The notes: generated from the letters alone by a model not told the origin. 64,000 bases of DNA from an uncultured Planctomycetaceae bacterium (GCA_963844055.1 CAWJMN010000002.1:2181586-2245585), one strand, 5' to 3'. Shown: positions 8,869 to 64,000, numbered from the stretch's first letter. Translations and numbers: made by a program.

Positions 8869-11195
8869 ATGAACATCCGCAAACCTTTTCCTGGCCATCG
8901 CATTGGCTCCCTTGGGGGCATGCTGATTGGGCTGGCGCTACTTCATGGGGCAAACCTCTTTGCCCAGGAGAGCCTGCATATTGATGATGACGATGCGCCA
9001 ACGGTTGAGGCGACCGCCTTCCAGCAAGAATCGGCCGAGCCGATGGGAACGCTGCCAGCGGTGGAAGTGCAGCCCAGTGACCTGCCCTCTTCGGTTGTGA
9101 CCGGAGGCGAGATTGGCGAAGTTCCACAGTCCGGGGGACTGTTTGATTTACCCTTTAGCTACCCCTCGCTTTCGGATCAGTTGTTTGAAGGGGCAAGCTC
9201 GGGCGTACGCGGGCTGAATCGTTCGGTAGCCGACTTGCCCAACAATGCGACGATCATCGATCGCGCAACGATACAAGAGAAGCAAGCGCAGACGCTCATG
9301 CAAGCCTTGCAAAATGAGACAGGTGTGCTGGTGCAGCAAACCGGGCGTGGCCAGTCTTCGATCTTTATGCGCGGCGTGACTGGACAACAGGTGTTGATCT
9401 TGGTCGATGGCATTCGCGTGAACAATTCCACCTTGTCGCTGGCCCTAACCAGTACTCGGCTCTGTTTGATCCCGGCTCGATCGATCACATTGAAGTGATT
9501 CGCGGCTCGCAATCGACGATGTGGGGTGGCGACGCGATTGGTGGCGTGGTGAATATTGTCACGCGTGGGGCGAACCCCAACCGGGGCAACTATACCGGCA
9601 CGAACTTCCAGCAAACGTTTAGCTCGGCCGACCTGGGCACCTATAGCCGTGCGAGCCTCGAAGGTTGGGTGGGACGCCAAGGGCTGTATGCAGGTGGCAG
9701 CTATTTAGATAATGACAACTTGGATCGGGGCGGCGGCCTCGGGCGTCAGCCGGGAACCGAATATAGTCAGTACGCCTTTGACCTGAAGTACAACTTCTTA
9801 GTCAGCGATACCGACCTGTTAACGGTGGTGATGCAACATTTTGAGCAGCAGGATGTGCCACGGAGTGATCGCTTTGATCCTTTTGTGAAGCAGAACATTC
9901 CCACCGCTGCCGCTCGTCCTACCTATTTTGATCCACAGCAGCGCGACTTGATTTATGCTCGTCTGCAGGGCGAAGGAATGAACGCCTTTTACGATACCTA
10001 CGCGCACACGGTGTCGTGGCAGTTCAACAAAGAAGGAACGACCGAGCAGCAAGGGAATCAGCTGACCCGGGGTGAGTTCGACGTCAACACGTGGGGCTAT
10101 ACCATGACATTGACCAAAGACCTTGAGCACTTTGGCATCATCAGCTACGGCGGTGATTACTACAATGATGCGATTGACTCGGTGCGCTCACGCCGGGCGA
10201 ACAATGCGGCCCCGTTTGTGCCCGTGGCCTCCGCCCAGTATCCCAACGATGCCACTTATGATCGTGGCGGCGTCTATGCAACCTGGGATTTGCAAGTCTC
10301 TCAGCGGCTGAACATTTTGGCCGGCGGTCGCTACGAAAATGTGAACGCCCAAGCGACACCGCTGGTAACGCTTAACAATGTGGCCAATACGCCCTATCCG
10401 TTTGATCGCACCTATCAGGCTTGGGTTGGCAATATCGGCATGACCTACAACCTGACCGATCAGACCAACGTCGTGGGCGGTATCTATCAAGGTTTCCGCG
10501 CACCTTCGATTGACGACCTCACGGCCGACAAGACCTTCTTACAAAACGCACAGAACACACCCACCGTCGGTGCCCTTAGTGTTCAGCCGGAACATAGCCG
10601 GACGTATGAAGTCGGGCTGAAGCATGATGGCGAGCGTTTGCGTGGCGGCCTTTATCAATGGTGGATGAACATTGATGACTACATGACGCGCGTTCCCGAT
10701 GCCAACAATGTCGTCGTGCTGGGAAACAGCAATGCTGCCTTGCATGGTACTGAGCTCAATGGCGAGTACTTGCTTGATCCACAGTGGAGCCTGTACGGCA
10801 ACTTTTGGTACACCTGGGGCAATGACACCAACACGGGCGATGTCTTTCCACGAATTCCGCCCACCCAGGGAACGCTTGGCGCACGTTGGCGAGACGAAGC
10901 CCGCCTTACCTATGTCGATCTATATACCTGGATGGTCGATCAAGTGGAGGCCCGCCACTATCCACGCTCGCTCTTTAACAACTTGGGGCAATCGACCGAT
11001 GCCCGCTTTCCTACCGGTGGCACAGCCGGCTATGCGACGCTTAACCTGCGGATGGGGCGGACCTTTGGCGAAACCCAGGCCCATCGGATTAGCACAACGT
11101 TTTACAACATCACCGACAAGTACTATCGCGTGCTAGGTTCGGGCGTCGATGGCGAAGGGTTCAACGCCCTGATCACTTACGAGTACAAGCACTAG
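8869..11195 (+). CDS. TonB-dependent outer-membrane receptor, interrupted by an apparent frameshift near 9430-9450
   Basis: ORF 8869..9498 carries the signal peptide and plug domain (FMRGVTGQQVLILVDGIRVNN). ORF 9495..11195 (GTG-initiated in the track) carries IRGSQSTMWGGDAIGGVVNIVTRG plus the beta-barrel. The frame-0 continuation ...GPNQYSALFDPGSIDHIEVIRG reads through the junction. Confidence 0.7.
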
Positions 11196-12193
11196 TTCGA
11201 GCGGAATAGCTCGTGGCATTCGGTGCAGGCTTTGCCGATGACGGTGCCGGCCGAGCTGGCTGCGTCGAAGTTCTTTACCTTGCAAGCCTCGACAATGTCG
11301 CGCGAGGCTTTTTCGAGCGTCTTGCAAAAGGCCTTGTACTCGGCAGAGTCGGCGTCTTCCATCCCTTCCTTGGCGATGGCAGCGGCAATCGCTGCAAAGA
11401 CTTCTGCCTCGCGCGAGATCTTCTCGACATTGGCGGTGAACTGCCCCTTGTCGTTCAGGGAAGGTTTGAGGCTTGGCTCAAAGACATCTTCCAGATACTG
11501 CATCAAAGGTCCACGATCACAAACGGCCGCCCAGCTGGCCTTGGCGTCGGCCTCTTTGCCGCTGAACGGGTCACTACCGCCAACGAGGTCGGCCAGTTCG
11601 GTCTTGCGAAGCTTCGCTTCGGCAAAGACTTGGTCGGTACCCACCTTGGCATTGGCGGCCGTGCGTGAAAACGTGTCGCGGGCGGCAGCGGCCGACTTCT
11701 TCCAGCGCACATCCCCTTCGTACTCTCCCGCGATGGCAAACAGCATGGCCAGCATCGAGAAGTCGCGGCGGATGACGCGGTAGCCTTTTCCTTTGAAGTC
11801 GCTGGGGGTTGTGATGGCGCCATCGACCTTTAGTTTGATCGCCTTGATTTCATCTTCGATCGTTTGGGCCGAGATCACCGCCGACCAACCCGTTCCAGCA
11901 GCACCACCAGCGCTAGCGGCCGGCGTGTTGCCCCCTGTAGGTGCGCCGGTCGTGGCGGCTACGCTCTTGCCAAGGTCGGCCGGACGTTCGCCAACGAGTG
12001 CTTCTTTGAAGGCATCGGCAAAGAAGACGTCGGGCTCTGCAGCGAGCTTGGGAAGTTGCACGCGGCGAATCTTCTTGGGCCCTTTGGTTTGTGCCCAGAC
12101 GGCCGAGTTGCCAACATACATCCCGAAGATGCAGGTCACCCCGAGGATTGCTACCAGCAGGGCGGTCAACTTTGCAAATCGCTTGCGAGACAT
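11192..12193 (-). CDS. membrane-anchored protein with C-terminal CxxCH (class II cytochrome c / cytochrome c'-like four-helix domain)
   Basis: It has an N-terminal TM segment and an Ala/Gly/Thr-rich linker. The helical C-terminal ~150 aa end in ...GKACTECHELFRSN, the position typical of class II c-type cytochromes. Confidence 0.45.
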   Translation of the reverse strand: MSRKRFAKLTALLVAILGVTCIFGMYVGNSAVWAQTKGPKKIRRVQLPKLAAEPDVFFADAFKEALVGERPADLGKSVAATTGAPTGGNTPAASAGGAAGTGWSAVISAQTIEDEIKAIKLKVDGAITTPSDFKGKGYRVIRRDFSMLAMLFAIAGEYEGDVRWKKSAAAARDTFSRTAANAKVGTDQVFAEAKLRKTELADLVGGSDPFSGKEADAKASWAAVCDRGPLMQYLEDVFEPSLKPSLNDKGQFTANVEKISREAEVFAAIAAAIAKEGMEDADSAEYKAFCKTLEKASRDIVEACKVKNFDAASSAGTVIGKACTECHELFRSN

Positions 12194-12911
12194 TGCGTAA
12201 ACCCTTCGCAGGGCACCTTGGAGAGCTATCGAAAAACGACTGACCAGATTATCTACGGAAACTTGTCATGCATTCTTCGTAGGGTGGGTCGAGCCGCAGG
12301 CAATGACTCTCCATGTTTGAACGGCCAAAGGGGATTGGTCGTCCTACACTTTTCGAGAAGTTCGCATGATCGTTTTGTTCAGGCCCAACTAGCCTTCGGC
12401 GCTGGTGGGTCATCGCGGCGTTGCCGCTCGACGCCACCCTACAAAGGCACGAAACGGAATCGCTGGGAGGCACTACTTCAGTATGGCTTTTTACGGGGGC
12501 TCATGCAATTGGCATTTTTCCTCTACAAAACGGCAGGGGTGGCACGTACCTGGAGACGCAGGCAAAGGTCGTGGCCTTAGAGGTTCCGCCAAAACTTCTT
12601 CAAGCCGCCGGCATTGGCGCTTTTCCCGGAACGATGGTTTTCGCCTGGAATTTGGAATAAAACTGACGGCCTTGTCTGGTGATCGACGAACGGGGAGTCT
12701 AACCTTGCCGTTTACCGGGTAGCACAGAAGCTTGGTGGCGGCTGGGCAAATGCGAGGGCGTTTGTAAGCCTTCAACGGCGAAGGTGGCCGGGCCGGCGAA
12801 CCTAGGCCAACTTAGGGAACTCACAAGTTTAGTACTAGCAAAGTCTTCGACGAAACGAAACCGATTCAAAAACGGCTCGACCTTGGGCCTTGGCTGGAAT
12901 TAGAGCAAAGC

Positions 12912-14121
12912 ATGGAATGGACGGAAGCGCAAACCAAAATTGGCAAGCGGTTCAACCTTGCCATCGAAGAAAACAAGACGAAAGTAGTTCGCGAGCTAGT
13001 GCAGAAGCACTCCTGGCTCGTTCGGGATTACGAATGGAATAATCGTTCTACCTGGATGCGAACTGTAGGGCTCGTTGGTCATGTGGCGATGGCGGAAACG
13101 CTGTTGGACCTGGGTTTCAATATTGATGCCTTGAGTCTGCCAGAAAAATCTTCTGCCTTGTCTCTCGCTATTGCCTTTAAGCATTGGGATTTAGTTTGTT
13201 TTCTATTGGCAAAAGGGGCTAACCCTAACCTGGGGCGGGCGATGGTGTCGGCGATCAATTGCGAGGTTCCCGCCAAGCGTTTAGAACTGGTGATGTTGCT
13301 GGTAAAACATGGCGCCGACGTCAACCAGGTATATGACTTCATGGGTGACAAAGACACGGTATTCACAGTTCTAGATTGGACTGAAAAAAGTTCCGATGTC
13401 TACGCCTATCTGAAATCGGTGGGGGCCAAGCCCGCTTTCGAACTCAGAGGGAGTTCGAAAGATGTCGCAGCAACCGCTCCTGCCAAAAAAACGGCCGTCA
13501 AAAAGCGAGTTGGCGTTCCGACTGGGGAGCGGGAGGTGATCGACTATTTTCGTAAGGCCTTTGGGCCGGTCGATAAGAAAATTGTTAGCGAGGTGATTCC
13601 GACGGGGATTTCAGTAACGATCCATAGGATCAAGCCTTCCAAGGGGCGTCCGCACCTCACCTTATTTACAACCGGACTTTCGCAAGTCGCCATGCAGGTG
13701 CCTGCCGGCCAAGAGGAATATGCGCTGGCCGAGCTTTTCATTCAGCTACCCTACGACTGGAATGATGAGCAGCTTGGCAATCCAAAATGGAATTGGCCTT
13801 GGAAGTGGTTGCAAAAGGTGTCGCAGTATCCGCAGCAGAACCAGACTTGGCTGGGGGGGGCCGCTCACGATTGTGGCCAACGAAGAACCGCCCCGGCCGC
13901 TGGCCCCTCATACGAAGATGACGTCGCTGTTGCTTCTGGCCGAGAAGTCGTTCCAGCGAAAGGATGGCAAGGTGGTTCAGCTTTATCGGATGCTTCCACT
14001 ATTCACAGAAGAGCGAGCGCTCGAACAGCGTGAAGGTGCCCTTGCTTTGATGCAGGCCCTTGACCGGAACAAGGTCCCCTTTGTTGTCGACATGGCCCGC
14101 AAGAGCATCGCCAAAAAGTAG
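12912..14121 (+). CDS. ankyrin-repeat + SUFU-like (immunity-type) protein; frameshift in a G8 homopolymer at ~13849-13857
   Basis: The N-terminus has ankyrin-like repeats (LAKGANPN..., LVKHGADVNQ). A SUFU-like segment (HLTLFTTGLS...ELFIQLPYDWN...WNWPWKWL) continues after the poly-G in ORF 13720..14121 (WGGPLTIVANEEP...LYRMLPLFTEERALEQ...). Confidence 0.55.
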
Positions 14122-14123
14122 GC

Positions 14124-14156
14124 CGCCATGTGCTGGGGCGGCACGTTTTTGATCCG
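14124..14156 (+). terminator. candidate intrinsic terminator
   Basis: GCCGCC-ATGTGCTGG-GGCGGC hairpin followed by ACGTTTTTGA. Confidence 0.4.
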
Positions 14157-14163
14157 GCTTGGC

Positions 14164-14197
14164 CGGAAGAAATCGGCCGCGGGGTGAGGTAGGATAG
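14164..14197 (+). promoter_or_regulatory. conserved 34-nt upstream motif (copy 1) CGGAAGAAATCGGCCGCGGGGTGAGGTAGGATAG
   Basis: It lies about 45 nt upstream of paralog 1 and is near-identical to 18953..18986, which sits upstream of paralog 2. Confidence 0.5.
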
Positions 14198-14239
14198 TGA
14201 CAGTCATCGTTGGCAGTAGTTTGGCGGCGGGTTCTTATC

Positions 14240-15619: not shown

Positions 15620-15713
15620 TGTGGCCGCAGGGTGATGTTGGGATGCGTTGGCGGGAATTGGCAAGACGCCATTTACGTGCCTGCAAGCCGAGAGGTCGTT
15701 ACAGCGAAAAGTT

Positions 15714-15812
15714 GGCAAGGTGGTTCCACTTTGTCGGATGCTTCCACGATTCACAGAAGAGCGAGCGCTCGAACTGTTTGAAGGCTTGCCAAACGGGGGT
15801 GCTGTGTTTTGA
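15714..15812 (+). pseudogene. decayed fragment of a SUFU-like C-terminus (GKVVPLCRMLPRFTEERALELFEGL...)
   Basis: It is nucleotide-similar to 13961..14040 of the ankyrin-SUFU gene but has no start codon, so it reads as a truncated remnant. Confidence 0.5.
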
Positions 15813-16155
15813 CCTAAGAGGGGCCTGTCTCAAGGTCCTCATCCATTTTCCTTTTTGACGAAAAGAGGAAGGGGGTGCATTTTTTACATAAGGTGCCCTT
15901 TTGAGTGCTGTTGGCACAAATACACCGGGGGAATCCACAGTAAATAGACACTAACTCCTAATAGTCAGGCCGTCCTGCCGCCGCCAAATTTGATGGTACC
16001 AGTCGACCTACTTGTCTTGCGTACGTACCACCCGCAGAATACGTACTTTCCAGCATGTTCTCATGCTAAATCGATCGAGATTCTTGGATCATTCACTTTG
16101 ACGAATGCCCCTCCCTTTCTCCAAGATGATCCACGTTAACGAAGAGGGAATGTAG

Positions 16156-18821
16156 ATGGCGCTTTCAAGCGAGCAATTCCTGAATCAGATTGTCGCCAGC
16201 GGACTGCTGACTCAGGAAGAGGTTACGGCATTGTTAGGCACTTTGTCGCCTGAACGGCAACCCAAAGATGCCGAGCAGCTCAGCTCGCGAACTTGTTCGG
16301 CAGAAGAAGCTGACCAAGTATCAGGCCGAGCAGATTTATGCGGGCAAAGGCAAGACGCTGATTCTTGGCAACTATGTGGTGCTCGACAAGCTTGGCCAAG
16401 GCGGCATGGGAGTGGTGCTGAAGGCGGAGCACAAGCGGCTCAAGCGTCTGGTTGCTTTGAAGGTGATGTCTCCCAATCTGGTGAAGACACCGGATGCCTT
16501 GAAGCGGTTTCATCGTGAGGTCGAAGCGGCCGCCAAGTTACGTCATCCGAATGTCGTCGCAACGGACGACGCCGATGAAGCCAAGGGGACACACTTTCTG
16601 GTGATGGAGTATGTGCAAGGCAGTGACCTTTCGGAGCTCGTGAAAAAGAATGGTCCATTTACGGTGTCGCAGGCCGTGCAATGTATCCTGCAAGCGGCAC
16701 GCGGACTGGAGTACGCCCACAAACAGTCTGTGGTCCATCGCGACATCAAGCCAGCCAATTTGTTGCTTGATATTTCGGGTACCGTAAAGATTCTCGATAT
16801 GGGGCTGGCGCGAATCGAAGGGGATACGGGCAACCAGAGCGGACTGACCAGCACTGGCGCCGTGATGGGAACGGTGGATTATATGGCTCCCGAACAGGCT
16901 ATGAGTACGAAGCATGCCGATGCGCAGTGATATTTACAGCTTGGGGATTTCCTTATGGTATTTACTCACCGGTAGATGTGCCTACGACGGAGATACATTG
17001 ATGTCGAAACTACTGGCGCATCGCGATGCGCCCATTCCGTCGCTCGCTTCACTGGATCGTAAAATCCCGGCTGCGCTGGATAGCGTGTTTCGTAAGATGG
17101 TGGCGAAAAACGCCAGTGAGCGGTACCAGACGATGGCAGAGGTGATTCGCGACCTGGAGAGCTGTTCTGGCGGCTCCAGTTCGCCTTCCGAGGCAGGGGC
17201 GACAAGCGACCTGGAAAAGTTCAGCCAGTTTTCGCTTCATAGACAGCCCGCAGGTTCGCCATCTCCCATGACGGCAACGCAAACGATCTCGGCGCCAAGG
17301 GAGCAGACCAAGGCAAACACTCCGTTAGAAGCGACGTTGGTGGTCGCCAATGCTGCGATGGATACAAATCCGCAGACCGTCGCTTTGCTCCGCCCACAGG
17401 AGCGGTTGCCGACGGTTGGGCAATCGCCAGTTGCTGGTAAAACCACAGCGCCGCCATGGTATCGCAGTCCACTGGTGCTGCTTGCCGGAGGTGGTGCGGC
17501 AGCGCTGATCCTGTTGATGGTGGTGTTCCTGATGAAAACTCCGCATGGAACCTTGCGTGTGGAGATTCTCGATCCCAAAGTCGAGATGAAAGTAAAAGGT
17601 ACCGAAATCACGTTTCACTCGACGGACATCGAAGCGGTTTCGCTAGTTACGGGCGAAAAGAAACTAATCGTTAACCGGGGAGATCTCTCCTTTGAAACGG
17701 AGACCTTTGCGCTAAAGAAGGGAGCAGAGACCCTCGTCAAAGTAGAGCTGATTGGTGACCAACTTGTAGTGAATAGCGACGGCAAAGTGATTGCCGAGAA
17801 ACCGATCCCGCATCCACTCGCAAACAATGCACCGAAGGATATGACGAAGGAAACGATTCCTGTCGTGGCGACTCCGGTCGCAAGGCCTCCTGTGTCCAAG
17901 GATGGAATTCCGAATGCGGCGGTTGAACCGTTTGACACGGAACAGGCTCACGCCTATCAGGAAGCATGGGCGAAGTACCTTCAAGTGCCGGTTGAATTTA
18001 CAAACTCGGTAGGGATGAAGTTCATACTTGTCCCACCGGGAGAGTTTACGATGGGTGCTTCTGAGGCGGAAACAGATCGGATCGATATTTCAAACGACGA
18101 CGAGGAAATTCGAAAAATTGTGCGGCAAAAATTTGCTGAGTCTTCTCCACCACATCGGGTGAAAATCACGCGGCCGTTTTACATGCAGACACATGAAGTG
18201 AACAACGGTGTCTACCAGAAGCTGCTGGGAAAACTTCCTGAGGAAAACGACCCTGCGAGGCCCGAGATGCCAGTGATGGCAAACGTGTCCCTTAATGACG
18301 CCGTCTCGTTTTGCGATGCACTCAGCAAGCTGGAAGGTAAGACTCCTGCGTATCAACTGGTCCGTAATAAGCCAAAGCGGAATCTCGATGCGAATGGATA
18401 TCGATTGCCAACCGAAGCCGAATGGGAATATGCTTGTCGAGCTGGCACGACGACCCTTTGGCATTTCAAAACGGAACCCATGGTTCCGAAAAATCTTTTG
18501 GCGCTGAAAGAGTATCAGACAATTTGGAGTAAGGAAAATACACGCCCCAACCCCTTCGGCATCTATGACCAATATGCATCAAGTAGCGAATGGTGTTTCG
18601 ACCGTTTCCAGCCGTATTCCGATAAGACCGAAGTCGATCCATTCACTCCGCCCGATGAAGGTTACGCAGTCGTACGCGGGGGGAGTTTTTTTTCCAACGG
18701 CGGAGCAGACGCAGGAGACAACAACAGCTTCATTCGCATGGCCGGTATTGCAAGCCGATACACGGGCCTGGGGCGTGTCGTTCTCCCCCTTGAGATCAAG
18801 CAAGAGACCCCCAAGCCGTAA
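16156..18821 (+). CDS. Ser/Thr protein kinase fused to a formylglycine-generating-enzyme (SUMF1/FGE-sulfatase) domain; two apparent frameshifts (~16285-16295 and ~16920-16925)
   Basis: Kinase motifs [32 protein letters not shown] and APEQ are present. The frame breaks before subdomain I and at ...[16 protein letters not shown] segment follows, then an FGE domain ([20 protein letters not shown]...[20 protein letters not shown]). Confidence 0.7.
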
Positions 18822-18952
18822 CTGTCTCACTTGAGGCAACAACCTGTCGAATTGACCAGCCATTCAAAACGTTGACTTGTAGCGGCATCGTTAGGCGATG
18901 GGAGAATGAAGGGGCCACCGCGACCTAGTAAACCTGAGTTCTCTCACTCTTC

Positions 18953-18986
18953 TCGGAAGAAATCGGCCGCTGGGTGAGGTAGGATA
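18953..18986 (+). promoter_or_regulatory. conserved 34-nt upstream motif (copy 2)
   Basis: CGGAAGAAATCGGCCGCTGGGTGAGGTAGGATAG lies upstream of paralog 2 and differs by one nucleotide from 14164..14197. Confidence 0.5.
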
Positions 18987-19028
18987 GGCTCCTGGGACTT
19001 GGCAAGTCGTGGGGCAAGGGATTCGTAC

Positions 19029-22955: not shown

Positions 22956-24219
22956 ATGCTCATGTCGATTGCTGATACTTTGCCGCTAGACCCTTATCGC
23001 CTGCGGGCCGACTTTCCGATCCTTTCGCGAGAAGTGCATGAAGGTCGGCAGCTTGTCTATTTGGATAATGGCGCAACAACCCAACATCCGCGCAGCGTAA
23101 TCGATGCGCTCGTGGGAGTTTACGAAAAGCATTATGCGAACGTCCATCGTGGCATCCATACGCTGAGCGAAGAGAGCACCAGCCTGTATGAAGCGGCCCG
23201 CGAGGCGATTCAAAAGTTTATCCATGCGGCCAAGCTGGAAGAGATCGTCTTTACAAGTGGAACGACGGCCGGCGTGAACCTGGTTGCCCGAAGCTGGGGC
23301 GATGCGAACGTTCGCGCCGGGGATGAGATCTTACTGACGCTGATGGAGCACCATTCCAACATCGTTCCGTGGCAACAATTGGCCGAGCGAACCGGTTGCA
23401 CGATTCGATTTGTTCCGCTGACGACAGACTTGCAGCTGGACCTTGAGGCCTTTGAAAAATTGCTCTCGCCTAAGACCAAGCTGGTCGCCTTCACCGCGTG
23501 CAGCAATGTGTTGGGGGCTTATAACCCGGTTGAAAAGATGAATCGCTTGGCCCATGCGGCCGGAGCGCTAGTGCTGGTAGATGCGGCGCAGGCAGTGCCT
23601 CATGCCGAGCTGGACGTACAGAAGTGGGACGCCGATTTTGTCGTCTTCAGTGGGCACAAGATGCTAGGGCCTTCCGGCGTGGGAGTGTTGTATGGCAAAG
23701 AAGCACTGCTTGAGGCCATGCCGCCCTTCTTGGGAGGTGGCAGCATGATTCGTAGCGTCACGCTCAGGGGTTATGAAAACGCGATGCTTCCTGCGAAGTT
23801 TGAAGCAGGGACTCCGCCGATTGCGCCGGCCCTGGGAATGACAGCCGCGATTGAATACCTAACCGGTGTTGGCCTGGAGAACATTCATCGGCATGAGGCA
23901 CTGCTTGCCGAGCGCGATTCCGCTGCTAAAGAATGTGCCTGGGCTAACGCTGTTTACACCTCCGAGCGAAGCGGGGCATAGTGGGATTTTGTCGTTCGTG
24001 ATTGAAGGGCTGTCGTCACGTGACATTGCCGAGTATTTGGACATGCGAGGGATTGCGATCCGCGCAGGGCATCACTGCGCGATGCCGTTACATGAACGGC
24101 TTGGCGTTTCTACGACGTGTCGCGCGAGCTTCTACTTGTACAACACGCCCGAAGAGGTCGATCAATTAGCCGCAGCGCTGGTGAGTGCACAGCGGATCTT
24201 GTCGAAGCGGCGACGATAA
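22956..24219 (+). CDS. sufS: cysteine desulfurase SufS/CsdA family; apparent frameshift near 23915-23920
   Basis: PLP-lysine motif FSGHKMLGPSGVGVLYG is present. The C-terminal RAGHHCAMPLHERLGVSTTCRASFYLYNTPEEVDQL lies in the overlapping ORF 23866..24219. The junction reads ...LAER/AIPLLKNVPGL. Confidence 0.8.
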
Positions 24220-26329: not shown

Positions 26330-27245
26330 ATGTCTCCCACCATCTTTCACAAGTTCTTGGCCGAGTTGCTGGGGACCTTTTTATTGGTTCTGTTTGGCTG
26401 CGGCGCGGTGCATGCCTCGGTGTTGGCGTCGGCTCCGCTGGGAAGTTGGCAGATTGGAATTGTGTGGGGCGTGGCGATCATGGCGATCGCGACGGTTTGC
26501 GGCGGGATCAGCGGCGCGCACTTGAACCCGGCGGTTACGCTGAGCGATGGCGCTATGGGGGCGGTTTCGCGGCAGCCACTTGCTGCCTTACATCTTTGCC
26601 CAATTCATCGGCGCATTCATGGCGGCGGTTACGTTGCACATGCTCTATGGCGGGTTGCTGCTGAAAAAGGATGCCGACCTGAACACGATGCGTGGTCAGC
26701 CGGGAAGCATTGTGACGGCCTCTTGTTATGGCCAGTACTTTCCTAGCCCCAGCACTTGGACACCAGGGGGAACGGCCAACGTTGTCAACTCGATGGGACA
26801 GCCGATTCGGATTGAGGTTGTTTCACAGCCGGTGGCCTTTTTGGCAGAGCTGCTTGGAACGGCGATCTTGGTGCTGGTGATCTTTGCGGTGACTGATCGA
26901 AAGAACCAGCATGCTCCGCCGAGCTGGATGGGGGCGGCCTATATCGGGCTAACGCTGGCGGCGCTAATCACTTTCCTTTCGCCGTTGACGCAGGCGGGCT
27001 TTAATCCGGCGCGGGACTTTTCGCCGCGATTGTTTGCCTACTTTGCGGGCTGGCGTGAAGTGGCGATGCCGGGCCCGAACGGAATTGGCTATATCACGGT
27101 CTATGTGATGGCCCCATTTTTGGGCGCGATTGTCGGGGGCGGGTTCTATGAGGCGATTTTTCGTCCCCTGTTAAGCGTGAAGCCCCGCGACATCGATCTT
27201 GATATGATCTTGCGCGATGGTCCCCGCGATGATGAGGATGAATAG
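26330..27245 (+). CDS. aquaporin/glycerol facilitator (MIP family); apparent frameshift near 26540-26550
   Basis: The first NPA box (GAHLNPAVTL) is in ORF 26330..26746. The continuation (MALWGRF...LPYIFAQFIGAF...) runs through a second half-repeat in ORF 26547..27245. Confidence 0.75.
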
Positions 27246-46557: not shown

Positions 46558-46625
46558 TCGCGTGCATTCTATTGCGAAAAGGAAGCATGGCTCACGGTGG
46601 TCAGTCTGGATACCTGTGTTCCAGA

Positions 46626-47114: not shown

Positions 47115-47156
47115 AAGGGCATGTAGCCCAAAGAAGTGGAAACGGGCGGCGGGGTG

Positions 47157-47967
47157 CTACTCGGCAGATTCTTTCAGCAAGATGCCGATGCGAGCGGGGG
47201 GATAGTCGCGGATGTCCCAGTTGTCGTTGTCGTGTGTCAGGTCGGGCCACAGCTCGATCGGATTCACGCGAGTATCGCATTCGATCACTAGCACGCTTCG
47301 ATCTGGGGCGGCATTCCAGAGTCCCCGCACGAGGGCATCCATGTCTTCCGCGCGAGAGATAAAACTCGTACGGCGGCGAGCAGAAGATCAACCAAGGAAG
47401 GCCGTTTTGCAGGAAGCGAATGTTCGATGCTTGGCCAGGGATCACCTTGCGTGGTGCGGGAGCGACCCCTTCGCCAGCCACTTCTGGATGGAGCTTCTCC
47501 ATGGCGCGGCGGACCCACAAGAACGTGTCGGCAAAGCAGACTTCGCAGGCTTCCTTCTCGTGAAGGGACTCGACGTTCTTGGAGATGGTGATCGAGGTGG
47601 GGAGGTGCTTTTCTAGAAGGATCGCCTGGGAGCAGCCCCGGCTGATTGCTTCAAGCCCCAAAGCTCCGGTCCCTGCAAAGAGGTCAATCGCCACGCGCCC
47701 TTCGCAAAAGGTGCTGACGAGGTTGAACAGCGACTCGCGAACGCGGTCCTTCATGGGGCGTGTGCGAACGTCACCACTGTAGACGAGGGTTCGGCCGCGA
47801 TGCTTGCCACCAATAATGCGAACGGTGCCGGGGCCTTCTTGGGCCTCTGGGGCTGGCCGTCCGGCACGCTCGGGGGACTCGGCCCCTTCGGCGGCCTCGC
47901 GGCCTTCGGGCGCATCGTGGTCACGGCGTTTGGAGCGGGGAGGACGAGAATCGCGTTTGGCGGGCAT
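47157..47967 (-). CDS. rsmD: 16S rRNA (guanine966-N2)-methyltransferase RsmD; apparent frameshift near 47340-47360
   Basis: VRIIGGKHRGRTLVYSGDVRTRPMKDRVRESLFN, DLFAGTGALGLEAISRG and IFCSPPYEF are in ORF 47092..48096. The C-terminus (MDALVRGLWN...VLVIECD...) is in ORF 47157..47342. The start is approximated at MPAKRD. Confidence 0.7.
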
Positions 47968-48200: not shown

Positions 48201-49371
48201 ATGAAGAACACCAAAAAACGTGCTTGGCTCAGGCTTTTGTCGGTTGTGGCAATCCAGGGATCGCTGGTTTTAGGCGGCTGGGATCTGTTTCAACCAGGGG
48301 GGGCGATGGCCCAAGAGGCGGCTCCAGCCGAGGCTGCTGCGGCACCGGGACCCGCTAGGGCGGAGTTCGAAAAGGTGTTTGGCGAGTGGAAGCAGGTCCT
48401 TAATGACCTGCGCGGTCAAGCAAAAGTACAATTCGGCCGACAAAGATGCCGACATCACTCCCTTCCGCGAGCAATGGAAGGCCCTGATCGCCAAGGGGAA
48501 TAAGCAGTTGGCCAAACTGCGTGAAGCGGCAATGGCCGCCTATGCAGAAGCGCCCAATACCGATCCGCAAATCACGCGGACGTTGGTAAAGATGGCCAAC
48601 GATGCCTCGGCCAATGATGATTGGGCCGCGGCTGCAGAGGTGAGCAAGCTGCTACTGGATAATGGCTGCGATGAAACCTCGCTGTTTAGCGTGGCGGGCA
48701 TGGCGGCCTTTGGCATGGATGATTACGAAGCGGCCGACAAGTTCTTCAAGCAGGCGGAAGGGGTTGGCAAGCTTTCCAACGCCGCGGCTGAGTTTCAAAC
48801 GTTCGTGGGCGACCAAAAGGACCTGTGGGCCAAGGAACAAGAGATTCGCAAGGCCGAAGCCGCCAAGGATGATCTTCCTCGCGTGAAATTCACGACCGGC
48901 AAGGGAGACATTGTGATCGAGCTGTTTGAGAACGAAGCGCCGGAAACTGTTGGCAACTTTGTGAACCTGGTAGAGAAGGGCTTTTATAACGGCCTGTCGT
49001 TCCATCGCGTGCTGGCGAACTTCATGGCCCAAGGTGGTGACCCGAAGGGAACCGGCGAAGGGGGCCCAGGCTACAACATCTACTGCGAATGCTACAAGCC
49101 AGAGTATCGTCGGCACTTTGCAGGCAGCCTCAGCATGGCCCATCGCGGCCGTGATACGGGTGGTTCGCAATTCTTTTTGACGTTCCGCGCTACGCCGCAC
49201 CTCAATGGCAAGCACACTTGCTTTGGTCGCGTAGTCGAAGGGATGGATGTTTTGGCTCACCTGCAAAAGCGTGATCCCGAAGGGGAAGGCTCGCCTGAGC
49301 CTGACAAGATCATCAAGGCAGATGTCATTCGCAAACGCGATCATGCCTACGTTCCCAAGAAGGTGGACTAA
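48201..49371 (+). CDS. cyclophilin-type peptidyl-prolyl cis-trans isomerase with N-terminal helical/TPR-like domain; apparent frameshift near 48410-48420
   Basis: The signal-bearing N-terminus is in ORF 48201..48503. The remainder, including the cyclophilin core (FHRVLANFMAQGGDP...GGSQFFLTF), is in ORF 48379..49371. It is colinear with the intact paralog downstream. Confidence 0.75.
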
Positions 49372-49451
49372 CCCGCGCCGGGTTAGTTTGGGGACGGAAA
49401 TTAAACGGATTGTGGCGTAGGGTAGGGCCGTTTCGGAGAGGGAGTTCTGGC

Positions 49452-56353: not shown

Positions 56354-56679
56354 GGGCTGGTCAATCGTCCGAGGGGGCGAGGCAAGTTCCTGGCGGCACA
56401 ATTTCTGTGTGGCGAGGGCATTAACGGAGCCTGCAGGCCCATTTCGTAGCCCTTTTTACGGGGTTAGCGGCTTGAATCTGGCCTTCCGCTAGATGACAAT
56501 TGCCAGACGGGAGAATTCCACCGGTTATTGGCGAGTACTCTGGTGCTGGAATCTCCTTTAAGGTTGGCTTCGCTTGCCGCTATGTTTCGTCGGCGTGCAG
56601 GGCGCTTTGCGCGATCGGGAAATGCCCGCCGCCAACCACTATCCCCCCTCCTGTTTGCTTTCCTTTTGGAACCTCTGCG

Positions 56680-59304
56680 ATGCGTGCATTGAATTGGCCG
56701 TCGGTTTCTGTGGCGTTGTGCTGGCTGGTGCTGGCCGCCCTGGGTGTCTCTCCTGCATGGGCTGAGGCCCCTGCCCTCAAGCTTGCCAAGGGGAACCATG
56801 TCGTTCTGATTGGCAATACCTTGGCCGAGCGGATGCAGTATCACGGCAATTTTGAAACGCAGCTGCATAGCCGTTTTCCTGACTTGGAACTGGTCGTGCG
56901 TGATCTGGGTTGGTCGGCCGACGAAGTGAACCTTCGTCCTCGCTCGCAAGACTTCAAAGATCACGGCCACAACCTGGAAGACCACAAGGCTGACGTGATC
57001 TTGGCCTTCTTTGGTTTCAACGAGTCGTTCGGCGGCGAAAAGGGATTGCCCAAATTCCGTGGCGACCTGGAAAAGTTCGTCACCACCACCAAGGCCGCCA
57101 AGTACAACGGCACTTCAGCACCGCAATTGGTGCTGTTCTCGCCGATTGCTCATGAAAACCTCGGCAAGCGCGAGCTGCCTGATGGATCGGCCAACAACAA
57201 GAACATTGCCCTGTACTCGGCTGCGATGAAAGAGATCGCCGCCAAGCACGATGTGCTGTTTGTGGACATCTTCACGCCAACGCAAAAGGCGATGGCCGAA
57301 GCCAAGCAAAAGTGGACGATCAACGGCATTCACCTCAACACGTTTGGTGATGCACAGCTCGCCACGATCTTGGATACTTCGCTGTTTGGCGCACGCCCTG
57401 CCGGCAGCGAGAAGGTCAATATGGAAAAGCTGCACGCCGAGGTGCAAGAGAAGAACCTGCAGTTCTTCTACGACTATCGTGCCGTCAATGGCTTTTACAT
57501 CTACGGTGGCCGTAAGAATCCCTTCGGCACGGTCAACTTCCCCAAGGAATTTGCCAAGCTCCGAAAGATGATCGCCAATCGTGATGCTCGGATTTGGGCC
57601 GTTGCCCAAGGGAAAGAAGTTCCCGCCAAGATTGATGACAGCAACACGGGCGACATCACGCCGATCGAGACCAACGCAAAAAATCCTGCACCTTTCACGA
57701 CGGCCGAAGAGTCGCAAAAGAAGATGCAGCTGCCTGAAGGTTATGCGGTCAACCTGTTTGCTTCCGAAGCAGAATTTCCTGACCTGCAAAACCCTGTGCA
57801 GTTTGCCTTTGACGCCAAGGGACGCTTGTGGGTCACGACGATGCCGTCGTACCCGATGTACCTGCCTGGCGTGCCTGTGAATGACAAGGTTCTGATCCTG
57901 GAAGACACCAATGGTGACGGCAAGGCCGACAAGCAAACCGTGTTTGCGGATGGCTTGCATGTGCCAACTGGTATTGAGCTGGGTGACGGTGGCGCTTATG
58001 TGGCCAACCAACCGAACCTCCTGTTTTTGAAGGACACCAATGGGGATGACAAGGCCGACTCACGAGAAATCGTGCTACACGGTTTTGATTCGGCCGACTC
58101 GCATCACTCGATCAGTGCGTTTACTTGGGATCAGGGTGGAGCTCTCTACTTTGAGGAAGGAACCTTCCATCACACGCAAGTCGAATCGCCTTATGGCCCT
58201 GTTCGCTGCATGAATGCGGGTGTATTCCGTTTTGAGCCACGCACTTGCCGCTTTAGCGTGTTTGTTTCCTATGGGTTTGCCAATCCTTGGGGGCACATTG
58301 TGGATGGTTGGGGCCAAAACTTTGTGGCCGATGCCTCGGGTGGTGCCAACTATTACGGCACGGCTTTCTCGGGCGATGTGGACTATCCTCACAAGCACGG
58401 TGGCCTGAAGGAATTCCTGAAGAAGCAGTGGCGTCCAACGGCTGGCTGCGAGCTGGTTACCAGCCGCAACTTCCCCGATGAAGCCCAAGGGAACTACCTG
58501 CTGAATAACTGCATTGGTTTCCAAGGGGTGCTGCAATACAAGATGAAGGATGCTGGTTCGGGCTTTGCTGCCGATCCACAAGAACCTTTGCTGCAATCGA
58601 GCGACGTCAATTTCCGTCCTGTGGATATTGAGTTTGGTCCCGATGGTGCTTTGTACCTTTGCGACTGGTTCAACCCGCTGGTAGGTCACATGCAACATTC
58701 GCTGCGTGATCCGAATCGCGATAAGAACCACGGCCGTATTTGGCGTGTCTCTTACACGAAGAAGCCTTTGGTGAAGCCGGCAAAGATCCATGGCGAATCG
58801 ATCCCCAGCTTGCTCGCTCAGCTGAAGAGTGAGCCAGAAGAGCGTACCCGCAGCCGTATTCGTATTGAACTGCGTAGCCGTGACACGAACGAAGTTTTGG
58901 CTGCCTTCAAGAGCTGGCTTGGCTCGATCGACAAGGCCGACAAGGAATACGAGCACTGCAAGCTGGAAGCTTTGTGGATGCATCAACAACATGATGTCGT
59001 GAATGAAGACTTCCTCAAGGAAGTGCTTCGTTCGCCTGACTATCGTGCTCGTGCTGCGGCGACTCGCGTGCTTTGCTACTGGCGTGATCGCGTGAAGGAG
59101 CCTTTGGCTCTTCTAAAGGTTCAAGTCAATGATGAGCATCCACGCGTTCGCTTGGAAGCCGTTCGTGCCCTGAGCTTCTTCCATTCGCAAGATGCGATCG
59201 ACATTGCGACCGAGTCTTTGGTGTACGACCAGGATGACTACCTGAAGTACACGCTACAAGAGACGATGAACACGCTGGAACGCCGCGTGAAGAACGCCAA
59301 GTAA
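56680..59304 (+). CDS. membrane-bound-dehydrogenase-domain protein (SGNH-like N-terminus + beta-propeller + HEAT repeats), PVC-type
   Basis: Start at MRALNWPSVSVALCWLVLAALG (signal). SGNH-like HVVLIGNTLAERMQY...DLGWSADE. Propeller region DAKGRLWVTT...LCDWFNP. C-terminal HEAT-like repeats (PRVRLEAVRALSFF). Confidence 0.6.
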   Translation: MRALNWPSVSVALCWLVLAALGVSPAWAEAPALKLAKGNHVVLIGNTLAERMQYHGNFETQLHSRFPDLELVVRDLGWSADEVNLRPRSQDFKDHGHNLEDHKADVILAFFGFNESFGGEKGLPKFRGDLEKFVTTTKAAKYNGTSAPQLVLFSPIAHENLGKRELPDGSANNKNIALYSAAMKEIAAKHDVLFVDIFTPTQKAMAEAKQKWTINGIHLNTFGDAQLATILDTSLFGARPAGSEKVNMEKLHAEVQEKNLQFFYDYRAVNGFYIYGGRKNPFGTVNFPKEFAKLRKMIANRDARIWAVAQGKEVPAKIDDSNTGDITPIETNAKNPAPFTTAEESQKKMQLPEGYAVNLFASEAEFPDLQNPVQFAFDAKGRLWVTTMPSYPMYLPGVPVNDKVLILEDTNGDGKADKQTVFADGLHVPTGIELGDGGAYVANQPNLLFLKDTNGDDKADSREIVLHGFDSADSHHSISAFTWDQGGALYFEEGTFHHTQVESPYGPVRCMNAGVFRFEPRTCRFSVFVSYGFANPWGHIVDGWGQNFVADASGGANYYGTAFSGDVDYPHKHGGLKEFLKKQWRPTAGCELVTSRNFPDEAQGNYLLNNCIGFQGVLQYKMKDAGSGFAADPQEPLLQSSDVNFRPVDIEFGPDGALYLCDWFNPLVGHMQHSLRDPNRDKNHGRIWRVSYTKKPLVKPAKIHGESIPSLLAQLKSEPEERTRSRIRIELRSRDTNEVLAAFKSWLGSIDKADKEYEHCKLEALWMHQQHDVVNEDFLKEVLRSPDYRARAAATRVLCYWRDRVKEPLALLKVQVNDEHPRVRLEAVRALSFFHSQDAIDIATESLVYDQDDYLKYTLQETMNTLERRVKNAK

Positions 59305-59457
59305 AAGGGCCATACTGGGGAGGTTTTCGAGCCTCCCCAGGGGCTGGACCCGATGGTAAAATGAAGTAGGTTTTCAAGAGCCACGCAGGCCTTTCCAGGT
59401 CGGCATGGCTCTTGGCGTTTTCGGATGGTGGAATTTCGGAAAAGAGAGTGGTGGGTT

Positions 59458-61326
59458 ATGTCGTCTTCGCCAAAGCAGGCTCGTGTTGGAATTTTCGGAG
59501 GCGCAATCGCCCGCAAGCTTTTGCAAACGGCAGTGACCAGTGCTTTTGCCACCACCTTGCTGGCTGGAAGTGTCGTGGTGGGTTCGATGTGCGCTGCAAG
59601 CCATGCCGCCTTCGCCCAGGAGGAAGGTGCCGAAGCAAGCCCGGCCGCCCCCTTGATGAAGCTACTGAAAAGTGGACGCCTGCCCCCCGAGCGCCAAGCC
59701 ACCGTAGTCGAAATGATTTGCAAACGGGGAAATGGTGGCGACCTCGCCTACATCGCAGAGCAACTTGCCAAGCCAGATGGCTTTCCGGCCGAGCAACGCG
59801 CAAAGGTTGCCCAGTGGTTGGCCGAAGCGACGCAGACCCGCAAAGTGGTTCCAACGGGCAACGTGACTGCGATTGGCCAATTGATGGCCAGTGATGATCC
59901 GGCATTGCAACAAGCGGGGATCAAGCTGGCGGCACTGTGGAAGGTGAAGGGAGTGGCTTCGCAGCTCGATTCGCTGTTAGCAAAGCCAAAGCTGGGGGCC
60001 GCATTGCAGCGAGCCGCCATTGAAGGGCTTGTCGCTTTGGATGACGATGCGGCGCGGGCTACCCTGGAAAAGTTGGCCGGCAGCAGCAGTCCCTTGAAGC
60101 TGCGGATTTTGGCGGTCGCTGGTTGGGCGAAGCGTGATTCGGCGAAGGCGGCACCTGTTGCGGCAGATGTACTCGTCGCCTGCACCGGAAGCGACAACTT
60201 GGAACCCCTCCTGGATGCGTTCCTTGGCAGGAAGAGTGGCGCGGATGAACTGGCAACGGCGCTGGGGGGCAAGCAGCTTTCTGCCGATGTTGCCAAGTTG
60301 GCCTTGCGATACATGTACTCGATTGGGCGAAGTGATGCGGGCCTTTCGAATGTTTTGAGCCAAGCAGCAGGAATTGCTGCCGATCCACCGCTTCCGACGC
60401 AAGAAGAAGTGGCCAAGATTGCGGCCGAAGTGCAAGAGAAGGGAGATGCGGTTCGAGGCGAGAAAGTCTTTCGTTCGAAGAGCGTCAGCTGCTTCAAATG
60501 CCACGCCCTAAGCCAAGCAGGAGGCAACGTTGGCCCTGAACTGAGCGCGCTGGGCTCGATTTCGCCTGTGGATTATGTGGTGAACTCGATTTTGAATCCG
60601 AATCTGGCAATCAAAGAGCAGTTTGTTACCAAGACGATTGTGACCAGCGAAGGCAATGTGGTGACGGGCGTTGTCGTTGATCGTGATACAAGCCGACTGC
60701 GTATGAAGGATGCCAGCGGTAACATCCTGATCATCCCGGCCGAAGACATTGATACCGAGGTGGAAGGCAAGTCGCTGATGCCACAAGGGCTAACGAAGTT
60801 TTTGACCCACCAAGAAACGCTCGACTTGATGAAGTTTGTGTCGCTACTGGGAAAGCCGGGCCCTTACGCCATTCGCAAGGCCGAGACGATGCAGCGGTGG
60901 CGTGTCCTGCGCGAACCAGCGGCCGAAGTGCTAAGCGAAGTCCCCAATGTAGAAATCGTACGGGCCAAGATTCTGGAGCTTCCTGCCGATGGTTGGGATC
61001 CCGCCTATGCCCAGGTTGCCGGGGAGTTTCCTCTGGCAGAAGTTCGCCCCGCGGAGGGTCCATCCGTGGTGATCTTGCAAGGCGAAGTCGATGTGACCGA
61101 AGAAGGGGCTTTGAAGGTCGACATCAAGACCAAGGAGAAGTTCCAAGTCTGGTTTGATGCCGAGCCGTTTGGAGACTCCGCCCAGTTTGAAGTGGTGGCC
61201 ACCAAGGGACTGCACAAAGTGACGATCCGCGTGGAGCTAAGCGATCAGGCCGATCCTACACTGCGGCTAGAGCTGGTACGGCTGATTGGCTCTTCGGCGC
61301 AGTTTGTGGCAGTCGCTGGGAAGTAG
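59458..61326 (+). CDS. HEAT-repeat protein with C-terminal c-type cytochrome domain (PVC-type heme-binding CxxCH family)
   Basis: Signal peptide. HEAT/armadillo-like helices. CFKCHALSQAGGNVGPELS heme motif. Confidence 0.6.
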   Translation: MSSSPKQARVGIFGGAIARKLLQTAVTSAFATTLLAGSVVVGSMCAASHAAFAQEEGAEASPAAPLMKLLKSGRLPPERQATVVEMICKRGNGGDLAYIAEQLAKPDGFPAEQRAKVAQWLAEATQTRKVVPTGNVTAIGQLMASDDPALQQAGIKLAALWKVKGVASQLDSLLAKPKLGAALQRAAIEGLVALDDDAARATLEKLAGSSSPLKLRILAVAGWAKRDSAKAAPVAADVLVACTGSDNLEPLLDAFLGRKSGADELATALGGKQLSADVAKLALRYMYSIGRSDAGLSNVLSQAAGIAADPPLPTQEEVAKIAAEVQEKGDAVRGEKVFRSKSVSCFKCHALSQAGGNVGPELSALGSISPVDYVVNSILNPNLAIKEQFVTKTIVTSEGNVVTGVVVDRDTSRLRMKDASGNILIIPAEDIDTEVEGKSLMPQGLTKFLTHQETLDLMKFVSLLGKPGPYAIRKAETMQRWRVLREPAAEVLSEVPNVEIVRAKILELPADGWDPAYAQVAGEFPLAEVRPAEGPSVVILQGEVDVTEEGALKVDIKTKEKFQVWFDAEPFGDSAQFEVVATKGLHKVTIRVELSDQADPTLRLELVRLIGSSAQFVAVAGK

Positions 61327-63154: not shown

Positions 63155-63215
63155 CAAGGCTTTGCTTCCCGATGGGTTGCAAAGCCTTGCTTGTTTTCTT
63201 GGCTAGGATGTGTCG
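63155..63215. terminator. candidate bidirectional intrinsic terminator
   Basis: ~14-bp stem AAGCAAGGCTTTGC ... GCAAAGCCTTGCTT followed by GTTTTCTTGG. It lies between convergent genes. Confidence 0.45.
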
Positions 63216-63279
63216 CCTGCTGATTCTGCCGCTATGAATTTCGAGATTCACCGCTGGAGCATATCTGGCTGAATCTTGC

Positions 63280-64000
63280 TTAGAACTTGTGACCGCGCTG
63301 CGGACCATCTTTGGTCAGCGTGAGAATTTCATAGCCGGTCTCTGTAATCATGACCGTATGCTCAAATTGGGCGCTTAGGCCGCCATCTCGCGTGCGAACG
63401 GTCCAGCCATCACGCTTGCTGAGCATGGTTTCGTGCGTGCCGGTGTTGATCATCGGCTCAATCGTGAAGCAGATGCCAGGCTCTAGCTTTTGACGACGTG
63501 ATTCAGGCGTAGGGTTGTGCGGAATGGAGGGGGGCTGATGGAAGACCCGACCCAGGCCGTGGCCAACGTATTCTTGGACGACGCCAAACTTCTCGCGCTC
63601 GGCGATGTCCAAAATCGCATCGCCGATATCCGAAATACGCATGTTGGGTTTCAAAACGCTGATACCCGCCCACAAGCAATCAAATGAGCACTGCGTGACA
63701 CGGCGTGCCAGATCGGAAACTTCACCGATCAAGAAACGTTTCAGACTGATCGCCGTACCAGCCATCCACAATGGAGGTGATGTCGACGTTGCAGATGTCC
63801 CCATCCTTGAGGGCGACGGGAGCAGGAATGCCGTGGCAGATCACATCGTTGATGCTGGTGCAGCAGCTCTTTGGATAGGGGCAAATGTGTCCGGGGTAGC
63901 CCAGCGTCGCCGGCTTGTGGCCGTGGTCCAAGGTGTACGTATGCACGAACTTGTCAATCGCTTCGGTCGTGATGCCCGGCTTAACGATCTTTCGAATCTC
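63280..64000 (-). CDS. map: methionine aminopeptidase type I, 5'-partial (N-terminus beyond window end); apparent frameshift near 63750-63800
   Basis: ORF 63722..63946 ([34 protein letters not shown]...[19 protein letters not shown]) and ORF 63280..63804 (...[20 protein letters not shown]...[10 protein letters not shown]...[17 protein letters not shown]) are colinear with Map. Confidence 0.75.

Follow-up and report, generated by a model that had tools for sequence, protein, structure and literature searches.

The window analyzed here is a 64,000-nt stretch of a 2,349,368-bp contig. The deposited sequence of the window contains nine reading-frame breaks in eight of its approximately 45 genes, with two of the breaks in a Ser/Thr kinase gene. 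The affected genes and their lesions are as follows.

8869..11195, plus strand: TonB-dependent receptor, split at 9435-9437; the window is 1 nt short at 9436.
12912..14121, plus strand: ankyrin-SUFU gene, split at a G8 run (13853-13860); G7 restores the frame.
16156..18821, plus strand: Ser/Thr kinase with a fused FGE-sulfatase domain; one nucleotide too many at 16281 (site 1) and two too few between 16923 and 16924 (site 2).
22962..24219, plus strand: sufS cysteine desulfurase gene; 2 nt missing between 23914 and 23915.
26330..27245, plus strand: MIP/aquaporin; extra A at 26543 (CTGAGCG vs. CTG-GCG).
47157..47967, minus strand: RsmD-like methyltransferase (Cons_hypoth95); 2 nt missing between 47348 and 47349.
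48201..49371, plus strand: secreted cyclophilin whose N-terminus carries a long extension; the window lacks 2 nt between 48412 and 48413.
63280..64000, minus strand: type I methionine aminopeptidase gene (map); one extra A/T in a run of three at 63734-63736, with the N-terminus beyond the window end.

The breaks were recognized by Pfam as the colinear halves of one domain in neighboring ORFs of different frames: the receptor has its Plug in ORF 8869-9498 and its barrel in ORF 9495-11195, and the profile positions are 4-88 and then 85-172 for SUFU, 1-286 and then 290-371 for Aminotran_5 of sufS, 6-81 and then 81-222 for MIP, and 47-97 and then 97-208 for Peptidase_M24 of map. The Pkinase match of the kinase ends at position 172 of 263, and the Cons_hypoth95 match of the RsmD-like gene ends at 106 of 182 (99 bits vs. 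a cutoff of 24). In the cyclophilin gene, the frame changes between the N-terminus with its signal peptide and the Pro_isomerase part. The N-termini of the kinase (~16290) and the cyclophilin (~48412) have no Pfam support, and the breaks there were confirmed by the intact proteins of relatives. Frame changes in a codon-usage frame plot coincide with the break points indicated by Pfam. The exact lesions were then placed by alignment with close relatives or with contigs of the same strain. Five of the nine are 1-nt indels; the remaining ones, at kinase site 2 and in sufS, RsmD-like, and cyclophilin, are deletions of 2 nt. The initial annotation, made from the sequence alone, had reported single-nucleotide frameshifts in at least nine genes; nine is the number of lesions, but the genes are eight because the kinase is hit twice, and "single-nucleotide" describes five of the lesions but not the four 2-nt deletions. 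All nine breaks that it listed are present, within ~10 nt of where it put them except for map, whose lesion (63734-63736) lies ~15 nt lower than the region 63750-63800 given there. Its rate of about one indel per 7 kb agrees with nine lesions in 64 kb.

The fragment ORFs P0001, P0244, P0268, P0271, P0273, and P0275 are annotated on the 2,349,368-bp contig in NCBI and ENA; among them, P0244 (220 aa) and P0001 (635 aa) are fragments of the kinase. The lesions were therefore already in the public record and did not enter the sequence later. Two further gene pairs were inspected as candidates. The overlap of 4581-6338 with 6076-7599 was rejected as a frameshift, because the two are separate genes (581 aa and 407 aa) in relatives, and the same-frame pair 56500-59304 and 59425-61326 gave no sign of an in-frame stop error.

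We compared the window with relatives from three other samples, at 92-96% nucleotide identity (~95%). All seven comparable genes are intact there as single ORFs, including those for the receptor (775 aa), the kinase (882 aa; P0241), SufS (419 aa), the aquaporin (304 aa), the RsmD-like protein (270 aa), and the cyclophilin (390 aa); the ankyrin-SUFU gene is absent from these ~95% relatives. At the lesions, the window reads TTG-TCGCTGG in the receptor gene, GAGCG--CGATT in sufS, and CTGCG--CGGTC in the cyclophilin gene, where the relatives read TTGCGGGCTGG, GAGCGTGCGATT, and CTGCGAGCGGTC, respectively. Over an alignment of ~43 kb, the only coding indels with a length that is not a multiple of three are the seven predicted ones, and every other gene common to the window and the relatives keeps one frame, with no further frameshift in any of them. 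This comparison bears on programmed ribosomal frameshifting or transcriptional slippage, by which the sequence as it stands would yield full-length proteins. Slippage is conceivable at the G8 run, and both halves of every gene are conserved, but seven of the nine sites have no slippery heptamer, and four would need a 2-nt shift. Moreover, such a shift is not conserved, since the relatives carry all seven comparable genes in frame, and the same strain reads otherwise at three sites (see below). We consider this explanation extremely improbable.

One minimal edit per site gave full-length ORFs in all eight genes, with lengths matching those of the relatives' or homologues' proteins, and after these edits no additional stops or indels were found downstream of the breaks. 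The repaired proteins are ~98-99.7% identical to those of the relatives, at a DNA identity of ~95%; the aquaporin is at 99.7%, the cyclophilin is at 97.9% over its whole length, and the repaired RsmD-like ORF has 270 aa as in the relatives. The repaired SufS aligned end to end with SufS structures (PDB 1t3i, E=1e-127) and passed TIGR01979 (553 bits vs. a cutoff of 475.1). The repaired aquaporin passed TIGR00861 (174.6 vs. 171.25 bits), and so did the repaired partial map protein with TIGR00500 (251.8 vs. 171.35 bits). The repaired RsmD-like protein scored below the cutoff of TIGR00095 (90.1 vs. 117.5 bits), with only its N-terminal half aligned owing to an insertion, and therefore "RsmD-like" is the safe name. 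Homologues of the ankyrin-SUFU protein have 390-402 aa (P0276, 68%), and the junction TWLGGPLTI(I/V)AN is conserved in them. Six repaired full-length sequences (two start variants of SufS, MIP, cyclophilin, RsmD-like, and ankyrin-SUFU) had no exact match in the protein collection; hence, no intact copy from the same strain is at hand there for sufS, MIP, cyclophilin, and RsmD-like. In a separate scan of a genome collection, relatives of sufS were at most 60% identical among the matches listed.

Selection was assessed by dN/dS, which was 0.00-0.06 downstream of the breaks vs. 0.02-0.16 in intact control genes. Values after the break were 0.017 for the receptor and 0.0 for the RsmD-like gene, and in sufS the value was 0.014 upstream and 0.052 downstream. 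If all or most of the lesions were real, the lineage would be in decay or hypermutation, and sufS, map, and the RsmD-like gene would be among the genes being lost. The lesions do stand in the deposited assembly, and 2-nt deletions outside homopolymers are not a classic sequencing error. Nevertheless, genes of essential single function (SufS and type I methionine aminopeptidase) are affected, each site has one lesion with no secondary damage, dN/dS is no higher than in intact genes, the relatives are intact, and the map site and kinase site 1 are in frame in same-strain contigs. Genuine mutation throughout is thus very unlikely. The initial annotation had argued in the same direction: it is implausible that sufS, map, and other housekeeping genes were all inactivated at once, which points to indel errors in the consensus.

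A second assembly of the same strain, a comparison that the initial annotation had suggested, was available as Logan contigs of run ERR12037365, which cover 22.7 kb of the window at 99.88-100% identity. Four lesion sites are covered, and at three of them the contigs differ from the window. At the map site, the contig L085 is shorter by one T, and the frame is continuous; at 16281, another (L093) has one nucleotide fewer and the kinase frame is restored; at 9436/9437 in the receptor gene, L093 lacks one further nucleotide and is still out of frame. The G8 run is the only site identical in both assemblies, and it may be either an error or real. The lesions are therefore reproduced at G8, not reproduced at map and kinase site 1, and present with a different length in the receptor gene, in data sets that may not be independent. 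The chance of three of the five indel differences falling on the four predicted sites is ~2e-8. Contig ends behave similarly: L093 terminates exactly at 16923, which is kinase site 2, another end lies at an intergenic indel (52889-52892), and the contig L082 begins at 26555, 12 nt beyond the aquaporin lesion. The Logan contigs also carry damaging errors of their own, namely, a frameshift at 63369 in the conserved SAQFEHT motif of map and a dinucleotide swap at 16812-16813 that changes LARIEG of the kinase to LAQIEG, which indicates noisy reads rather than clean strain variants. Since these contigs disagree or break at the lesion sites and contain such errors, the reads appear to be ambiguous at those positions. 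Together with the intact relatives and the selection that is not relaxed downstream of the breaks, this supports the earlier view of the frameshifts as indel errors.

The same contigs raise a mixed case, in which most lesions are artefacts and one or two in accessory genes are real: the G8 tract of ankyrin-SUFU, which would be either a true frameshift or a tract of variable length, and perhaps the receptor lesion. The G8 run is the same in the window and in L093, the 373-aa ankyrin-SUFU fragment (P0270) is recorded in NCBI, ENA, and Logan, the gene seems dispensable because it is deleted in the ~95% relatives, and neither assembly has the receptor in frame. If ERR12037365 consists of accurate short reads, the receptor and G8 lesions would be real in that population, since the contigs of the run have both genes out of frame as well. 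However, both assemblies probably share one noisy read set, in which case their agreement is not independent, and a run of eight G is a classic site of miscounting. The length at the receptor site differs between the assemblies, with the low dN/dS after the break given above, and the part of ankyrin-SUFU beyond G8 still fits the conserved family sequence. On balance, we regard the mixed case as unlikely.

The sequence context of the lesions was also analyzed. With a homopolymer defined as a run of three or more, only two of the nine lesions lie in homopolymers (G8 at 13853-13860 and the run of three at 63734-63736), and the other seven touch runs of two at most. The initial annotation had asked whether the indels fall in homopolymers; for the most part, they do not. 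Contexts of the GCGC/CGCG type are enriched instead. The motif GCGC occurs within 8 nt of six of 12 error sites, compared with 6.5% of random positions (p=5e-5, ~0.007 corrected), and the four 2-nt deletions reduce GCGTGC, GCGAGC, or GCACGC to GCGC. The window reads GCTCAGC or GCTGAGC at four indel sites (16281, 26543, 52892, and 62454). Systematic miscalling of the palindrome GCTAGC was rejected as a general rule, because four GCTAGC sites are read normally and the 22 existing GCTSAGC sites lie mostly within intact genes. An enrichment of CGAT/ATCG was weak (p=0.008 uncorrected) and was lost after correction.

Wrong consensus lengths could also arise at divergent spots when reads of slightly divergent co-occurring strains are merged, rather than from basecalling. 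Close relatives are present in other samples, and some indels adjoin substitutions relative to the comparators: at the receptor site (CGGG vs. TCG), at kinase site 1 (TT-A vs. CTCA), at 63369, and at 62454. On the other hand, SNPs between the window and the same-strain contigs are very few, and identity is otherwise 99.9-100%, which gives little sign of a second strain, and the GCGC enrichment points to a sequence-specific error. We regard such a strain mixture as improbable.

We conclude that errors in the assembly consensus, rather than gene decay, very probably account for the nine frame breaks. The 2.35-Mb contig to which the window belongs comes from an uncultured Pirellulaceae-like planctomycete, and small indel errors would occur in its consensus at about one per 7 kb. 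Each break would be a miscount of 1 or 2 nt that arose in sequencing or consensus building. Apart from the G8 run and the run of three, the contexts affected are mainly short and rich in G+C, contain GCG, and are not homopolymers. The eight genes would most likely be intact in the living organism. The underlying reads were probably noisy long reads, presumably from Nanopore. The context bias suggests a systematic problem of basecalling or polishing, in which base modification or mixed strains are possibly involved. Some observations temper the conclusion that the breaks are errors: the non-homopolymer lesions and the four 2-nt deletions do not match the textbook error profile of long reads. 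For sufS, RsmD-like, and cyclophilin, what suggests an error is the intact relatives and the low dN/dS, and a very recent real mutation would also give both. It is doubtful, but somewhat less so than the mixed case or the strain mixture, that base modification of GCG-rich motifs disturbs basecalling, so that the errors report a real property of the DNA, and, separately, that G8 is a genuine length-variable switch.

The finding is a warning about data quality. In these 64 kb, approximately one gene in six would wrongly be called a pseudogene or a pair of fragments, and separate protein entries for such fragments already exist in the source annotation. Until the genome is polished, pseudogene counts, completeness and coding-density statistics, and protein-family clustering are biased, as are claims of phase variation or programmed frameshifting; the earlier caution against reading the frameshifts of accessory genes as biology holds. 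The unusual error contexts, that is, 2-nt deletions and GCGC, may interest developers of polishing tools but hold no new biology by themselves.

Several known systems resemble the window in part. The high share of disrupted genes is like the genome decay of reduced or host-restricted bacteria. Here, however, there is no relaxation of selection, no site has more than one lesion, the damage extends to essential genes, some sites are in frame in the same strain, and the lineage is of the large-genome, free-living planctomycete type. As in phase-variable contingency loci, ankyrin-SUFU has a G8 tract in its coding region, where a length change switches the frame; unlike in such loci, no variation in tract length was seen between the two same-strain assemblies, which both have G8, there is no evidence that ankyrin-SUFU is a surface or host-interaction factor, and eight other frameshifts outside tracts lie around it. 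Homopolymer length errors of pyrosequencing and semiconductor sequencing spread frameshifts across many genes. The G8 and run-of-three lesions would fit them, but seven of the nine sites are non-homopolymer, and a contig of 2.35 Mb is untypical for these platforms. Indel errors in the consensus of Nanopore-only genome and metagenome assemblies split ORFs and look like pseudogenes. The usual Nanopore profile is dominated by homopolymers and differs from the two homopolymer lesions and the four 2-nt deletions in GCG-rich contexts found here, where the platform itself is presumed. In other respects, the window is like assemblies from long reads only (Nanopore): many genes, including essential ones, are broken by indels of 1-2 nt at one per several kilobases, both halves of the genes are conserved, and an alternative assembly disagrees at the same sites.

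Colinear halves of a single Pfam domain lay in adjacent, differently framed ORFs for the TonB-dependent receptor, the ankyrin-SUFU gene, sufS, the MIP channel and map, and the kinase and the rsmD-like methyltransferase carried truncated Pfam domains. After training on the window's long ORFs, a codon-usage frame plot changed frame at the same eight places, and the junctions were directly visible in three-frame translations. At the N-termini of the kinase (~16290) and the cyclophilin (~48412), which lack Pfam support, the break was confirmed by comparison with close relatives, whose proteins are intact. The frame breaks reported in the initial annotation are thus real, with corrections: nine lesions affect eight genes rather than nine, four of the nine are 2-nt deletions rather than single-nucleotide changes, and the coordinates were accurate to ~10 nt except for map, whose lesion had been placed at 63750-63800.

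Frame breaks in the window. Differences are from pairwise alignment to ~95%-identical relatives unless stated otherwise; lengths are those of the single ORF in relatives; dN/dS refers to the segment downstream of the break.
TonB-dependent receptor, 9436: window lacks 1 nt; 775 aa; dN/dS 0.017
Ankyrin-SUFU gene, G8 run at 13853-13860: reading as G7 gives the conserved family junction
Kinase site 1, 16281: 1 surplus nt in window; 882 aa
Kinase site 2, 16923/16924: window lacks 2 nt; 882 aa
sufS, 23914/23915: window lacks 2 nt; 419 aa; dN/dS 0.052
MIP channel, 26543: surplus A in window; 304 aa; dN/dS 0.010
rsmD-like methyltransferase, 47348/47349: window lacks 2 nt; 270 aa; dN/dS 0.0
Cyclophilin, 48412/48413: window lacks 2 nt; 390 aa; dN/dS 0.062
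map, 63734-63736: lesion site; same-strain contig has one T fewer

The relatives were reached with the repaired kinase (the window ORF after one minimal edit per lesion) as query, which hit a protein of 93% identity in the Logan assemblies for SRR25018371, SRR25018378 and SRR25018389; further proteins of the same organism were obtained by cluster look-ups. Their contigs (L081, L083, L084, L087, L088, L090-L092) cover ~43 kb of the window at 92-96% DNA identity. Across this alignment the remaining 1-2-nt indels were all intergenic, and the remaining coding indels were all multiples of three (3, 6 or 12 nt). No other frame change was found among the genes common to the window and the relatives, all of which map in a single frame. 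The frameshift survey applies to these shared genes; a low-G+C strain-specific island at 43250-47146 (0.47 at 44-46 kb) differs in content, with several ORFs of 130-180 aa and an LRR protein of 282 aa in the window, and an LRR protein of 464 aa plus a 72-aa ORF in the relatives.

A single minimal edit at each site gave uninterrupted ORFs of the same lengths as in the relatives, and the repaired proteins were 98-99.7% identical to theirs (kinase, 93%) at a DNA divergence of ~5%. The lengths expected for the intact ankyrin-SUFU and kinase proteins of the window are 402 and 888 aa. dN/dS values downstream of each break, calculated by the Nei-Gojobori method, showed no sign of relaxed selection when compared with eight intact control genes (0.02-0.16); the only higher value, 0.28, came from the kinase's variable linker. 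This leaves two readings of the lesions: they arose very recently, or they are not real. Repaired sufS, map and channel proteins scored above the curated NCBIfam cutoffs (TIGR01979, TIGR00500 and the MIP model, respectively). The repaired methyltransferase fell below the NCBIfam RsmD cutoff and is best called RsmD-like. The cyclophilin belongs to a tandem pair of secreted proteins at 48201-50612 (390 and 386 aa, 51% identical), which is kept in the relatives; both members have a ~230-aa N-terminal extension before the Pro_isomerase domain.

Several intact window proteins recur unchanged in Logan contigs from another run, ERR12037365. Five contigs of this run, 99.88-100% identical to the window, span 22.7 kb of it, and comparison with such a same-strain assembly was a check proposed in the initial annotation. 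The two assemblies differed at the map, kinase site 1 and receptor sites. At map, one T fewer lets the gene read through; at kinase site 1, one nucleotide fewer restores the frame, with a substitution adjoining. At the receptor site the contig has a third length, falling one nucleotide short of the window and two short of the relatives, and this gene may carry genuine damage. Of the 5 indel differences in the 22.7 kb, three lay no more than 3 nt from one of four predicted sites (P ~2e-8). Moreover, one contig stopped precisely at kinase site 2 (16923), one ended at 52889, adjoining an intergenic indel relative to the relatives, and one started 12 nt past the MIP site. The Logan contigs contain errors of their own: a frameshift at 63369, within the conserved map motif SAQFEHT, and a dinucleotide swap altering the kinase motif LARIEG (16812-16813), at both of which the window has the conserved sequence. 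Each assembly is wrong at different places, and both disagree or break at the same short sequences, as expected of ambiguous, error-prone reads. Inside the intact gene 59425-61326, the left end of the same-strain contig L085 falls on a C6 run (window 59684), perhaps a further ambiguity at the read level that the window's consensus chanced to resolve in frame.

The G8 run was the only predicted site identical in both assemblies. The ankyrin-SUFU gene is missing from the ~95% relatives; in the wider family (390-402 aa) the sequence TWLGGPLTI(I/V)AN is conserved across the junction and is recovered in the window if the run is read as G7. The tract may represent a genuine frameshift or may vary in length. 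Its surroundings (12240-19170) are locally rearranged with respect to L081, L083 and L084, from which the ankyrin-SUFU gene (~12981-14032) is absent, and a 469-aa gene (14205-15628) precedes the kinase in the window but follows it in the relatives. The window's order was confirmed by the same-strain contig L093. The 469-aa gene has two paralogues, at 18999-20405 and 20762-22129 (44% and 54% aa identity).

The kinase (16156-18821) combines a Ser/Thr kinase domain, a transmembrane segment and a C-terminal FGE-sulfatase domain; fusions of PF00069 with PF03781 are widespread in Planctomycetota, with hundreds of matches. At L081 position 11954 (~window 18120), a single C to T between the relative's contigs from two samples converts a Gln codon to a stop, giving 651 aa + 181 aa compared with 882 aa in L083 and L084. 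Possibly this is a true nonsense polymorphism, in a gene with two window errors.

The initial annotation had also raised homopolymers as a possible location of the indels, but only 2 of the 9 lesions touched a run of at least 3. Local G+C was raised (0.66 versus 0.55). Among 12 error sites, made up of the nine lesions and three further same-strain differences, GCGC lay within 8 nt at 6/12, compared with 6.5% of random positions (p=5e-5, or roughly 0.007 corrected for 136 tetramers). In three 2-nt deletions, GCGTGC, GCGAGC or GCACGC of the relatives became GCGC in the window. Possible causes are a systematic bias in basecalling or polishing, modified bases, or the merging of strain variants. 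GCTCAGC or GCTGAGC occurred at four window sites with one extra base (16281, 26543, 52892, 62454); removal of the surplus base gives GCTAGC at 16281 and 52892, and at 26543 and 62454 only if one more difference from the comparator is assumed. General miscalling of GCTAGC was rejected, as four GCTAGC sites are read normally.

Taken together, the intact relatives, low dN/dS and same-strain disagreement at the lesions support an assembly artefact, that is, the indel errors in the consensus already suspected. The estimate of about one per 7 kb holds, as does the warning that pseudogene calls are unsafe. In the case of sufS, the cyclophilin and the rsmD-like gene, the breaks would be artefacts on two lines of evidence, relatives and selection.

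The organism is uncultured and Pirellulaceae-like. The gene content (PSCyt1/PSCyt2/PSD1, DUF1501, DUF1559) is typical of Planctomycetota, G+C is ~0.55, and the best sufS matches among those listed from a species-representative genome collection, Pirellulaceae and Mariniblastus MAGs, reach only ~60% identity. GC skew is positive throughout, reaching 0.18 between 26 and 56 kb, and the + strand carries most genes, which suggests that it is the leading strand across the whole window.

The biological interest of the breaks is low, and the unusual error contexts have some technical interest. The fragment ORFs are on record in NCBI and ENA, all on a single 2,349,368-bp contig; therefore, the window belongs to a publicly available assembly of very high contiguity. 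A literature search found no paper citing ERR12037365. The window assembly could plausibly come from the kind of source represented by a large Nanopore-only MAG catalogue, whose assemblies were polished against indel errors and which was inspected for Nanopore-associated errors (PMC12313526).
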